Below, one piece after another: positions 325-12,357 of a DNA stretch of 64,000 nt. This stretch comes from Acidobacteriota bacterium (GTDB taxonomy: Bacteria > Acidobacteriota > UBA890 > WLXD01): assembly GCA_965248695.1 (NCBI GenBank), contig CBDFKD010000002.1:416001-480000 (forward strand), given 5' to 3'. The notes beneath the pieces were generated by a model. The model saw nothing but the letters and a program-made list of their open reading frames with translations. It was not told the origin of the DNA and ran no database searches. A program made the position numbers and the translations under genes. Position 1 is the first letter of the stretch. The number at the start of each line of letters is the position of its first letter.

Positions 325-810
325 TCAGGCACCGGGTGCGCTCATGTTCGGTAGATCGATCTCCTTGATGCAAGTTGGGCGCGAGACCGCGAGCACGCAA
401 TCCAGCACGGCCAGCAGGTCCTCCATCGGTACCGCGTCGCCACGGTCGATCGCTCCGGGGCCGAGCTCCTCGAGAACCTCCGCGGTGCCTACGTCACCCG
501 GATTGATGACCGTGACACCGATTCGCTGCGGGCGTAGCTCGGCCCGCAGCGCGTGCACCACGCCGCGCAGCCCGAACTTGGAGGCCGCATACGCGACCTC
601 ACGAAACGGCACGTTGTCCTTCGTTGTTGCCCCGGCCGCGCTCGCCACACACGCAACGCCTTCCGGGGTGGACAGGTCTGCCGGCACCCAGGTGCCATGC
701 TTCGCTTCGGTGCGCGAGACCGAGAACAGCGTGTCTACTCGAGGTTCGAGATGGGCGGCGACCGCCGCACCGATCCCCCGACTGGCGCCGGCAACGACCA
801 CGTTCCTCAT
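325..810 (-). pseudogene. SDR oxidoreductase with in-frame internal deletion
   Basis: GASRGIG and YAASK motifs present but only 161 aa; central Rossmann segment missing near 630. Confidence 0.7.
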
Positions 811-4082: not shown

Positions 4083-4582
4083 CCGGAGGTGCCGGCCGCC
4101 GGAGCGCTCAGACGATAGCGGATGAAGCGCTCGCCCGCGATGATCGTCTCGCCGTCCTCGCGAAAACCCAGACGCAGCATCCCGGCGACGCGTGTTCTGC
4201 TCGGAGGAAGCAGCGCGATCACCGATTGCAGGCCGAGATCGCCAAAGGCGTGGTCGAGGATTCGGTGGCACAGGAATCTGCCCGCGCCCCAGTGTTCCGG
4301 ACTCAGCACGAGCCCAACGTCGGTGTCCTCACCCTCCGGCTGCAGTCCACCCCAACCGACGAATTCGTCCCCCAACATGAACGCCCAGGGCCCGTAGCCG
4401 TGCTCCTCCCACATACGTTCCTTGCTTGCGACGAACTCGTCGCAGTCCGCTGCACCGAACGTACCGTCGGCGAGTGGCAGATGCCGCCGAACCGCGGGGT
4501 CGTTCATGAGCCGGATGATGGCGCTCGACTTCACGTCGCGGAGTCGCCGGAACGCGATCCGCCGGCGATCGGGCCGGCTCAT
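4079..4582 (-). CDS. GNAT family N-acetyltransferase (RimJ/RimL type)
   Basis: HGYGPWAF...FVGWGGL...GLVL.PEHWG.G...RLGF. Confidence 0.85.
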   Translation of the reverse strand: MSRPDRRRIAFRRLRDVKSSAIIRLMNDPAVRRHLPLADGTFGAADCDEFVASKERMWEEHGYGPWAFMLGDEFVGWGGLQPEGEDTDVGLVLSPEHWGAGRFLCHRILDHAFGDLGLQSVIALLPPSRTRVAGMLRLGFREDGETIIAGERFIRYRLSAPAAGTSG

Positions 4583-4708
4583 CTTGTGGCGCCGAGCACA
4601 GTGCCGGCATACAAGGCCTCGAGAAACTGCCGAATCTTCTTATTGGTCAGGTAGAAGCCGCTCAACCGCGAATCCACCGTCCGGGACCGGCGCTACTTGA
4701 TTGGCAGG

Positions 4709-5503
4709 TCACGGCTTGTTCGCCCGGAAGTTGATACCGACGGTGCCGAACTCGCTGGCGCTCGATGCTTGTGGAGCACCGTCGAAGACCTCGGCTTTCC
4801 AGGTGATCTCGAAGTCGGTGAACCCTGCAGCGACGACCGTCGCTTCGAGCTCTGCTTCCAGCAGAGCGCCGGCGATTCAGCCGGTCCACAAATCGATCTT
4901 CTGTTTCGCAGCCTCGGACACTTCGCGGTCAACCAGAATATCGCCGATCTGCAGCCGGCCGCCGGGGCGCAGCACGCGATGCATCTCGCCCAGGGTCTTT
5001 TGCTTGTCGGGCGTCAGGTTGAGCACACCGTTGGAGATCACCACGTCGGCCCAGCCGTCGGGCACGGGAATCTCCTTCATGTAGGCCTCGCGAAACTCGA
5101 CGTTGTCGACGCCCGATTCGGCGGCAGCGGCGCGCGCCCGATCGAGCATCGCCGGGGTCATGTCGATGCCGACGACCTGGCCGCCGGGGGCGACCATGCG
5201 AGCCGCAACGAGCGCGTCGATTCCACCGCCCGATCCGACATCCACCACGTTCTCGCCGGAGGCCAGCTCGCCCATGGCAAACGGGTTGCCAGTGCCGGCA
5301 AACGATTCAACGGCCGATTCCGAAACACCTTCGAGCCACGCATCCTTGTAACCCACGATCTCGGTCAGCGGTCGGCCAGTATGGAAGTGGAAACCCTTGC
5401 CCGGATCCTCCGCGACTTCCCTGTACTCGTGCTGGATGGCCCGCCGCAGGGTTTCGGTATCGACATCGATCGCCTGCGCCACGAGTGAACGATCTGCCGG
5501 CAT
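4709..5503 (-). CDS. Arsenite methyltransferase-like SAM methyltransferase, probable selenoprotein (UGA=Sec at 4877-4879)
   Basis: SFAGTGNP, DVGSGGG, ISNGVLNL.PDK motifs; frame continues past TGA as LWTG-U-IAGALLE...NFRANKP* (stop 4709-4711); hairpin just downstream. Confidence 0.85.
4849..4867 (-). promoter_or_regulatory. Putative bacterial SECIS element
   Basis: mRNA GCUCUGCU-GGA-AGCAGAGC, perfect 8-bp stem with G-starting loop, starting 9 nt after the UGA. Confidence 0.7.
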
Positions 5504-5567
5504 ATCTCTCCCCCTTCTCTCTCCGCGCAGTGCGGCTTTCGGTCTTTCGGAATGGAGGCTCACCGAG

Positions 5568-6059
5568 CTACAGGCCTTTCGGCTCTCGAAGTCGGCCCGC
5601 GCCCCGCGTCAGCCACGTTAGGCCGAGTCCGACGAGCGCACCGGCTGCCTTCACCAAAGTCCCGTTCGGGAGACCAGCGGTATCATCAGCTCGCAGGAGA
5701 CGCCAAATCACGCCGAACTCACTTTCCCGAACCTCGGAAGCTGTGAGCGGCGACAGTGAGTCTGTTTGGACGAGATGAACCAGGCTCAAGTCACCGAGGA
5801 TGAAGAAGCCCAGCACGGCCACGACGATCCCCTTGTGCGCTGGCGCGACTACATGCGCAGTACAGAGGGCGACCCATGCGTATACGAGGCCTGAAAGGAA
5901 GGCGGACGAATAGACGAGCGCTCCACTCGAACCGCCCGCTCCCGCGGGGTACAGCGAGCCAAGCACGCCCGCTGCCAGAAACCCAGCGATCACCGAGACC
6001 GGGAAAAGAACCGTCCACCGAAGCCACCGTGGTACCTGCTCGATCACTGCTCCAGGCAT
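5568..6059 (-). CDS. Hypothetical membrane protein
   Basis: 163-aa ORF with about 4 hydrophobic segments. Confidence 0.6.
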   Translation of the reverse strand: MPGAVIEQVPRWLRWTVLFPVSVIAGFLAAGVLGSLYPAGAGGSSGALVYSSAFLSGLVYAWVALCTAHVVAPAHKGIVVAVLGFFILGDLSLVHLVQTDSLSPLTASEVRESEFGVIWRLLRADDTAGLPNGTLVKAAGALVGLGLTWLTRGAGRLREPKGL

Positions 6060-6088
6060 GCGCGCCTCGCGACGGGAAGAAGAGCTAG

Positions 6089-6359
6089 TAGGCCGTGGTG
6101 GAAGTGTGGCGGGCCTGGTTGCGACGAGTTGGTGCCAGATGCAAGGCGGCCTGACGCAGGCGATGCCCTAGCCATCGTCGAGGAGGGCCAACGCCGCAGA
6201 TGGCCCCAAATCGCCGCAACCCTTTGGGCGACAGGGGGTTGCGCGTGTATGCTGCGTCGTTCGTCGTCAACGATGGGGTAACCATCGCCTCCTCCTCTCT
6301 CCTTGCCTCCACCTCGCAAGACCCTGTCGCCAGGCCCGCCACACTTCCACCACGGCCTG
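6089..6359. mobile_element. MITE (271 bp, non-coding) with 30-bp terminal inverted repeats
   Basis: TIRs 6089-6118 and 6330-6359 match 29/30; flanked by CTAG at 6085-6088 and 6360-6363; internal inverted repeat 6117-6142 / 6196-6221. Confidence 0.85.
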
Positions 6360-10631: not shown

Positions 10632-12357
10632 TCACGAGTGGCTGGCCCCGGAGGCACTCAGGCCCGCCCACCAAAGCACTCCGATGAAGAATCCCTGCAG
10701 GGCGACGCGCGGAACGAGCGGCGTTACCGGCGCACCGCCGATCGTAGCTCCCGAGAGCGCGGCATGAACGTTCGCCGGCAGCAGGGCCACAAGCATCAGG
10801 ATCAACGCAATCGAGGCGAGACGGCGTGTCCGTGGAACGAGAAGCCCGACCGCACCGAGAATCTCGCACAACCCCGTGAGGGTAACCATGAGGCCAGGCG
10901 CCGGCACAAACGGCGGCACCATGGTGACCTGACCCCGCGGTTAGTACCATGTCTTATCTCAGTAACTCGGTGCTGACAAGAGGTTGTTGAGGCCGGCGAA
11001 GCGGAGCGCAGCCGGCTTCAACAACGTCGCTTCGGGTGCGGGCGGCCGATAGCTCAGCGAGCTGTGCGGTCGCATGCGGTTGTAGTGCTGACGCCATCTC
11101 TCGATCAGAACCTTTGCCTCCTTGAGCGTGTAGAAGATCTCTCCATCCAGCAGCTCGTCGCGTAGCTTGCCGTTGAAGCTCTCCACGTAACCGTTCTCCC
11201 ACGGCGAGCCCGGCTCGATGAACAGCGTCCCCACGCCCAACCGGCCCAGCCAGTCGCGAACCGCCTCGGCGGTGAACTCTGGTCCGTTATCCGACCGGAT
11301 GTGCTCAGGTATGCCCCGGTGTACGAACAACCTCCCGAGCTGCTCCAGCACGTCCTCAGAGTTGAGCTTCCGTGCTACATGGATCGCCAGGCTTTCTCGT
11401 GTGTACTCATCGACGATCGTCAGCAGCCTCATAGCCCGACCGTCGTGCGTCCGGTGGTGCAGGAAGTCATACGCCCAGACATGATCCCGGTGCTGTGGGC
11501 GCAGCCGGATGCAGGAGCCATCGCTCAGCCACAGCCGTGCTCGTTTGGGCTGTTTTCTCGGTACTTTCAGCCCTTCGCGCCGCCAGATACGCTGCACTCG
11601 TTTGTGGTTCACGGACCAGCCCTCCATGCGCAGCAACGCTGTCACCCTCCGATATCCGTAGCGCCCGTACTGTCGGGCTAAATCCACGATCCGCTCCGTC
11701 AAAATCTGCTCCTGTTGCGGCTCTCTTGGCACGTACCGGTGTGTCGTGCGTGGTTGTTTCAGTACCCGACACGCCCGCCTCTCCGAGACGCCCAGCCGCC
11801 CCCGTACATGTGCCACCGCCTCTCGCCGCCGAGCTGGGCTCAGAAGTTTCCCTCCGCCACTTCCTTCAGGATCGACAGGTCGAGTTCCTTTTCCGCCACC
11901 AGCCTCTTGAGCCGGGCATTCTCCTTCTCCAGTTGCTTGAGCTTTCTGGCCTGGTTGAGCTTCAGTCCGCCGTACTCTCGCCGCCACCGGTAGTAGGTGT
12001 GCTCGGTGATTGCTAGCTTGCGGCAGGCATCCTTGACCGTCGCCCCTCGAGCCAGCTCCACCTCAGCCTCCCGGAGCTTGCGTACGATCTGCTCGGCGCT
12101 GTGCCTCTTACTCGGCATTCTGACCTCCCGTTCTTGACCCAGATCGTGAGATTACATCCGGATCCGTTTTCGGGGGTCAGGTCAATGGCAATCAAGTCTG
12201 GTCGTAGGCTGTTGAAGTGGGCCGCGGCCGTAAAGCTGAACATGAACGCCAACCCCACTCGCGCCGCCATCGCCCAGTCCCGCAGCCGCGCTGGGCCGAC
12301 CTGTCCGACCAGCCGCGCCAGCGTTGTGGTCACAACGAGGACGATCAGCGGTGCCAT
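10632..12357 (-). pseudogene. DoxX-family membrane protein split by IS3 copy 1
   Basis: 12357-12185 (...TAAAHFNSLRPDLIA) rejoins 10924-10632 (MVPPFVPAP...LLPANVHAA) once the IS and one ATGG are removed. Confidence 0.9.
10925..12184 (-). mobile_element. IS3-family element (IS407-like), copy 1, 1260 bp
   Basis: TGACCTGACCCC termini; 4-bp TSD ATGG (10921-10924, 12185-12188); orfA 11840-12118; DDE orfB to 10959; GGGAAAC -1 slippery site. Confidence 0.97.

Follow-up and report, generated by a model that had tools for sequence, protein, structure and literature searches.

An ArsM-like gene interrupted by an in-frame UGA

The DNA considered here is a 64,000-nucleotide stretch of an Acidobacteriota genome (assembly GCA_965248695.1, contig CBDFKD010000002.1, positions 416,001 to 480,000; hereafter the window), and its subject is a gene for an ArsM-like class I S-adenosylmethionine (SAM)-dependent methyltransferase whose reading frame contains a UGA codon. 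The gene lies on the minus strand and runs from an ATG at 5503-5501 to a terminal TGA at 4711-4709, encoding 264 residues when the internal UGA is read as selenocysteine (Sec). This internal TGA, at 4879-4877, is codon 209 and is followed by 55 further codons, the translation reading LWTG, the UGA and then IAGALLEAEL...AAGFTDF...FRANKP before the terminal stop. The read-through protein has no cysteine: the ArsM motifs take the forms GTGNP (T71) and SNGV (G159), and codon 209 aligns with Cys224 of CmArsM. An earlier note on this DNA, silent on the strand, had carried the frame 55 codons past LWTG, had placed the UGA at a conserved Cys and had described a Cys-free protein with GTGNP for GCGNP and SNGV for SNCV, and the translation agrees with it throughout.

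The database entry for the gene ends at 208 residues, and 102 of its top 120 database matches are likewise 208-residue products. Because the UGA very likely encodes Sec and gene callers stop there, these entries would be mis-annotations. In a structure model, the protein exhibits a class I SAM methyltransferase fold with ArsM as the closest fold, and residues 39-264 align with residues 42-280 of 6CX6. By the secondary structure of the model, the read-through tail completes the fold. The clade-specific FHFHTGR motif probably lies near the Cys44 place of CmArsM, as judged from the range ends of the structural alignment alone.

Table 1 Features of the ArsM-like gene in the window.
Feature	Position	Strand	Remarks
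ArsM-like class I SAM-dependent methyltransferase gene	4709..5503	-	264 aa with UGA as Sec; no Cys
In-frame UGA, codon 209, very probably read as Sec	4877..4879	-	aligns with CmArsM Cys224; 77 TGA and 4 Cys among 81
Predicted Sec insertion sequence (SECIS) hairpin	4849..4867	-	8-bp stem, GGA loop starting 17 nt past UGA; criteria from PMC13188914 Fig. 2 legend
55 read-through codons, overlooked by gene callers	4712..4876	-	one helix and last two strands of structure model
SAM-binding motif I, residues 86-94	5222..5248	-	D88, G92, G94 invariant
Thr71 at CmArsM Cys72 place	5291..5293	-	T or V in 81/81
Gly159 at CmArsM Cys174 place	5027..5029	-	G in 81/81
FHFHTGR motif, clade-specific, residues 38-44	5372..5392	-	H39 in 76/81, H41 in 75/81
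Purine-rich ribosome-binding-like sequence upstream of ATG	5506..5517	-	by sequence; homologs begin at same residue

The UGA is predicted to encode selenocysteine

With 5.89 Mb at 96% completeness, the host genome contains selA, selB and selD, all scoring above curated cut-offs. ARAGORN predicts two tRNA-Sec genes, and the acceptor stem is complete only in the one at C2:5559422-5559519. The gene occurs in its TGA form (with one TGA) in 16 of 41 related genomes, and a selA match was found in 15 of these, the exception being a genome that is 69% complete. Homologs were collected from a scan of species genomes covering many phyla; the best 80 of 552 confirmed loci, together with the window's copy, give a set of 81. 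Codon 209 is TGA in 77 of these and a Cys codon in the remaining four. Across a set of 105 loci, which includes nine canonical arsM and some duplicates, only TGA, TGC or TGT is observed at this codon, and never TAA, TAG or TGG. When compared with 14 close homologs, the ratio of nonsynonymous to synonymous change (dN/dS) is 0.108 for the part ahead of the UGA and drops to 0.038 over codons 222-264.

Several features of the host machinery were recorded along the way. The second tRNA-Sec (C2:4678307-4678404) is identical to the intact selC in its 3' part, differs at its 5' end and resembles an attachment-site duplicate left behind by an integrated element. The host selD (C2:1557914-1558828, minus strand) lies inside a 794-aa open frame, and its product has Cys, not Sec, at the active site. 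A small rhodanese with a signal-peptide-like start (C2:794658-794891, minus strand) has an in-frame TGA at the place of its catalytic Cys and is likely a second selenoprotein of this host.

A 9-nt spacer separates the UGA from a perfect 8-bp stem, in which 4867-4860 pair with 4856-4849 around a GGA loop. The hairpin was judged against published criteria for bacterial SECIS elements: a loop of 3-9 nt, a stem of 4-16 bp, a UGA-to-loop distance of 16-37 nt, a G within the first two loop positions and a minimum free energy of at most -7.5 (PMC13188914, Fig. 2 legend). It conforms to this model, with a loop of 3 nt, a stem of 8 bp, a spacing of 17 and -15.4 kcal/mol. Its stability alone is modest, with z about -2.1 to -2.2 for folds of 32-45 nt and -0.5 for 100 nt. 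A perfect 8-bp Watson-Crick stem at the same register occurs at 7 of the 137,607 TGA trinucleotides of the host genome, including the codon-209 site.

The stem that the earlier note had described, perfect over 8 bp, with a GGA loop and 9 nt past the UGA, is also conserved and covarying in homologs. Over 71 distinct sequences, 97% of cells are paired, and two-sided changes are seen at five of the eight pairs; these values exceed 500 of 500 shuffles, a test that relatedness can inflate, and all slid-register controls. At least seven of the eight pairs form in 90 of 92 TGA loci versus none of 13 Cys loci (duplicates included). Stem codons are fixed at rare choices, with GCT for Ala213 and GCA for Ala217 each at 97% versus 11% elsewhere in the genes, and synonymous change drops by half inside the hairpin codons.

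If the UGA were a true stop, through a nonsense mutation or as the natural end of a 208-residue protein, the prevalence of 208-residue database products would be explained, and a UGA read as tryptophan under another genetic code would fit two JGI proteins (P0023, P0045) that have W at the Sec place. Both readings are highly improbable, however: the homologous codon is confined to TGA, TGC and TGT, the gene itself has TGG for Trp and ends on a TGA, purifying selection acts on the tail, which completes the fold, and the SECIS is missing from the Cys forms. The codon alternation, the dN/dS of the tail and the restriction of the SECIS to TGA loci led us to reject both a plain nonsense mutation and UGA as Trp. 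The host machinery, the Sec/Cys alternation, the model-conforming SECIS and the purifying selection past the UGA together indicate that the internal UGA almost certainly encodes Sec. The earlier note had proposed looking for host Sec genes, and selA, selB, selD and tRNA-Sec are all present; it had also called for Cys/UGA alternation in homologs, which the set of 81 displays. It had named a host without Sec machinery, with homologs all carrying Cys and lacking a hairpin, as fatal to a selenoprotein, but the machinery is there, TGA prevails and the stem is conserved. As to P0023 and P0045, a gene caller probably applied the wrong genetic code to the UGA.

Departure from canonical ArsM

Under a published rule, an ArsM has at least three of four conserved Cys (44, 72, 174 and 224 in CmArsM; PMC5552862), and the As-binding Cys pair of CmArsM has been described (PMC6138428). 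The window protein falls outside this rule, as only the 224 place is kept, in the form of Sec. Compared with ArsM and AS3MT of known structure (CmArsM 4FR0, 6CX6 and 4KW7; CrArsM 5EVJ; human 8XT7), it exhibits ~31-34% identity, lacks Cys44, Cys72 and Cys174, has Sec in place of Cys224 and is not part of an ars operon. Cys72 and Cys174 are both missing in all 81 clade members, the former place being occupied by T or V and the latter by G. Against the NF008823 model the protein scores 222.7 bits, below the curated cut-off of 263, and the clade is separate, with a branch support (SH-aLRT) of 100. Both trees built here were quick trees with midpoint roots, which imply no sequence of events, and the one giving this support left out seven duplicate or near-duplicate loci and two partial genes (L027, L102).

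By the defining tests of the family, as applied to its sequence, the protein is not an ArsM, although it is ArsM-like in fold; its chemistry probably resembles that of ArsM. Arsenite is disfavored as a substrate because the Cys pair is missing, the NF008823 score is below cut-off, the clade is separate and ars neighbors are absent (see below). Five Cys forms (P0027, P0033, P0039, P0071 and P0104) have an extra Cys eight residues ahead of the catalytic Cys, which may compensate for the loss of Sec.

Gene neighborhoods and fusions

Flanking genes were compared between 80 clade loci (mean flank 5.1 kb) and, as a control, 30 three-Cys loci of canonical arsM (mean 3.1 kb) belonging to the phylum of the host. 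The tblastn test covered all 80 loci whole, and the Pfam scan took in all but 39 of 268 neighbor-cluster representatives. By tblastn, ArsC, Acr3, ArsA, ArsD or ArsP adjoins none of the 80 clade loci versus 19 of the 30 canonical loci (18 of 30 with ars genes by Pfam); one ArsA-like ATPase lies near a single clade locus (L108). The commonest clade neighbors are instead DsrE, TusA and YeeE, an ArsR-rhodanese regulator, an MBL-fold protein resembling persulfide dioxygenase, an SQR-like oxidoreductase, an MFS transporter and an OsmC-like protein. Rhodanese, MBL-fold, DsrE, TusA, SQR-like or YeeE genes adjoin 18 of 80 clade loci, in several phyla, versus none of 30 canonical loci; with the OsmC-like gene included, the clade count rises to 23 of 80 and the canonical count remains at zero. 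By Pfam, rhodanese, DsrE or TusA is found at 14 of 80 clade loci (13 within 1.5 kb) and again at none of 30 canonical loci. For comparison, the roughly six rhodanese/TusA genes of the host would touch a random flank of the same size less than 1% of the time.

Gene fusions were also observed. Among the top 120 database matches, TusA is fused to 6 of 14 full-length Cys forms, with a Cys kept in the TusA domain, and the same fusion is seen in three more distant relatives. In an actinobacterial genome (L108:3001-6751), the Sec gene sits directly beside selB and selA. A second ArsM-like paralog adjoins the Sec gene in L026 (G034), L065 and G136:C2:548202-550636, the first two of which also have an ECF sigma factor nearby.

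Downstream of the window's own gene lie a GNAT acetyltransferase, an SRPBCC protein, an Nramp transporter and DUF488, and upstream a membrane protein and DUF1501. Only one genome of the same genus (L013) clearly shares both flanks.

A possible methyltransferase of reactive sulfur or selenium

We propose, with a probability of roughly 0.5, that the gene encodes a SAM-dependent enzyme for which reactive sulfur or selenium, not arsenite, is the methyl acceptor, with Sec209 as its only thiol or selenol. Such a substrate appears likelier than arsenite because the other As-binding Cys are missing and relatives are often found beside sulfur-carrier genes; the neighbors and fusions would make sulfane sulfur or selenium the likeliest acceptor. 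Sec209 is expected to lie adjacent to the SAM methyl group, as Cys224 does in CmArsM, and, with the chelating partner lost, it would hold its acceptor at a single point. The donor of sulfane sulfur (or selenium) to Sec209 would be a persulfide or polysulfide, or else a carrier, for example rhodanese, TusA or DsrE, which are described as sulfur transferases (PMC11094781, PMC9163753). SAM would then methylate the terminal atom on Sec209. Release of methanethiol (or methylselenol) by a reductant, either a cellular thiol or one of the thioredoxin type, would follow and result in detoxification. Methylation of persulfides and polysulfides has been reported for mammalian TPMT (PMC13089183). A narrower version, in which the clade as a whole is a Sec-dependent persulfide methyltransferase, with TusA, DsrE or rhodanese loading sulfane sulfur on the single Sec and SAM releasing methanethiol as a reductive exit for reactive sulfur (or selenium), is offered tentatively and is itself doubtful. 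The earlier note's hint at a substrate unlike that of canonical ArsM is in keeping with the clade structure and the gene neighborhoods.

Several observations weigh against sulfur or selenium as the substrate. There are no arsenic or sulfur genes among the window's own neighbors, and the host genome, at 96% completeness, gave no match to DsrE (the absence that counts here), to canonical arsM or to Acr3, nor any homolog of the ArsR-rhodanese, SQR-like, YeeE or OsmC-like neighbors of its relatives. No sulfur neighbor is present at 57 of the 80 loci, and among the 20 closest named loci (L037-L056) just two have one. The neighbor counts are not independent, since six positive loci are related Gemmatimonadaceae, and each group supplied its own tblastn queries. 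Beside canonical arsM (n=30), TauE and an OsmC protein were each seen once. In the wider group, MerC-like fusions occur in two distant relatives (P0135, P0165), although these matches are weak (E 5e-7 and 2e-5), and N-terminal DUF2652 fusions in 7 of 22 proteins scanned (P0127, P0130, P0144, P0146, P0148, P0161, P0191) point elsewhere.

These fusions, together with a DsbA-like fusion (P0152), AhpD fusions in the sister clade and neighborhoods that vary at most loci, would suit a selenoprotein methyltransferase whose substrate is some other thiol or soft electrophile (small organic thiols, a protein cysteine, or species of Hg, Sb, Bi or Te), perhaps by way of a methyl-Sec relay. We consider this rather unlikely, as the MerC matches fall in a different sub-branch and the clade's recurrent neighbors are sulfur carriers. 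A selenoprotein that still methylates arsenicals on one selenol, for example dimethylated trivalent arsenic (DMAs(III)) to trimethylarsine, or the monomethylated form (MAs(III)) with glutathione or His39/His41 as ligands, has its own attractions: DMAs(III) needs just one thiol, the TtArsM of Thermus, a precedent that also counts against a sulfur or selenium substrate, reportedly works with a single Cys plus two His (bioRxiv 10.1101/2021.07.12.452139), and His39 and His41 are conserved in the clade. However, ars genes adjoin no clade locus, Acr3 was not found in the 96% complete host, and Cys77 of TtArsM sits in the N-terminal part rather than at the Cys224 place, and arsenical methylation therefore seems unlikely. 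Of the seven DUF2652 fusions, six have database entries that end at the Sec codon place.

If methylation of sulfur or selenium is correct, a named selenoprotein family would take on a different function, and a widespread route to methanethiol, dimethyl sulfide or methylselenides would be added. If the clade consists of persulfide methyltransferases, it would represent an unrecognized source of volatile methyl-sulfur and methyl-selenium in soils and sediments, spanning at least eight phyla, whose genes are currently hidden in shortened form or counted by mistake as arsM. Cys forms that occur naturally as TusA fusions allow a direct test without selenoprotein expression. The clade can also inflate arsM counts in environmental surveys, because gene callers cut at the UGA and some sources label its members 'arsenite methyltransferase', although they lack the As-binding Cys and ars neighbors.

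Other observations in the window

A comparison of 4300-6100 of the window with Rfam yielded nothing at E up to 1, and no promoter-like or terminator-like sites were found within 4500-5700. The RNA sequencing runs listed matched in small shares only, and the contigs recovered from three RNA-labeled runs were pieces of relatives and are uninformative on expression of the window's copy; in one unlabeled run, no listed near-identical piece spanned the UGA. Elsewhere, an IS3-like transposase pair (10959-12118, minus strand) apparently splits a small membrane-protein gene (pieces 12013-12357 and 10632-10922), as judged by eye. A short-chain dehydrogenase of just 161 aa (325-810, minus strand) matches its models in separate pieces and may be internally deleted.

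Comparison with known selenoproteins and S-methyltransferases

An 'arsenite methyltransferase' selenoprotein is catalogued in Table 1 of PMC13188914 (NF008823/PRK11873, motif UxxG, one Sec, citing Fomenko 2007), the same family is listed in PMC9312934 with no motif given there, and a Sec-containing arsenite methyltransferase is listed in an ocean survey (PMC2398784); the main text of BSepDB makes no mention of it. The window protein is similarly ArsM-like, with one Sec in a U-x-x-G motif (U-I-A-G). It differs from the catalogued family in its NF008823 score, which falls short of the cut-off, and probably also in the absence of Cys72 and Cys174, in a comparison made apart from the family's representative, WP_011987699.1. 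The earlier note's statement that Sec forms had been reported is borne out by the selenoproteome tables; as a selenoprotein, the gene is correctly identified but unremarkable.

NCBIfam also lists double selenoproteins, namely NF041537 (ArsM/AhpD), NF041536 (ArsM/DUF2284) and NF047649 (methyltransferase/UXPK-star). The window protein scores far below the cut-offs of all three (226.9/510, 205.9/575 and 204.6/460 bits, respectively), NF041537 being its best-scoring NCBIfam model. Haft and Tolstoy 2025 is reportedly the work attached to these entries. The double-selenoprotein families have a second Sec-bearing domain or tail, whereas the window protein stands alone: its gene ends 55 codons past the UGA, and the next gene downstream is the GNAT, so there is no second Sec-bearing part. 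The two NF041537 members above cut-off likewise show Sec where CmArsM has Cys224, V where it has Cys72 and G where it has Cys174, and their UGA is followed by a hairpin. However, the NF041537 group is separate from the window clade (SH-aLRT 98; 35-44% identity over the 15 loci examined), and its members keep a Cys two residues ahead of the Cys72 place. Neither Sec in an ArsM fold nor the loss of Cys72/Cys174 is new in itself, since Sec-containing ArsM-like forms are catalogued and NF041537 members also lack both Cys.

A literature search over titles and abstract openings, covering few subscription journals and no supplements, found no stand-alone, Cys-poor and often Cys-free ArsM-like clade tied to sulfur carriers, and PMC12904073 uses none of the terms 'ArsM', 'arsenite' and 'selen' in its main text. 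Among known enzymes, MddA, MddH, MddM1/2 and TPMT (PMC11445057, PMC12904073, PMC13089183) are of membrane, UbiE, UbiG and TPMT types, and by description alone are set apart from the ArsM-like window protein. What the window protein would share with them is the proposed SAM-dependent methylation of sulfide or reactive sulfur as a means of detoxification.
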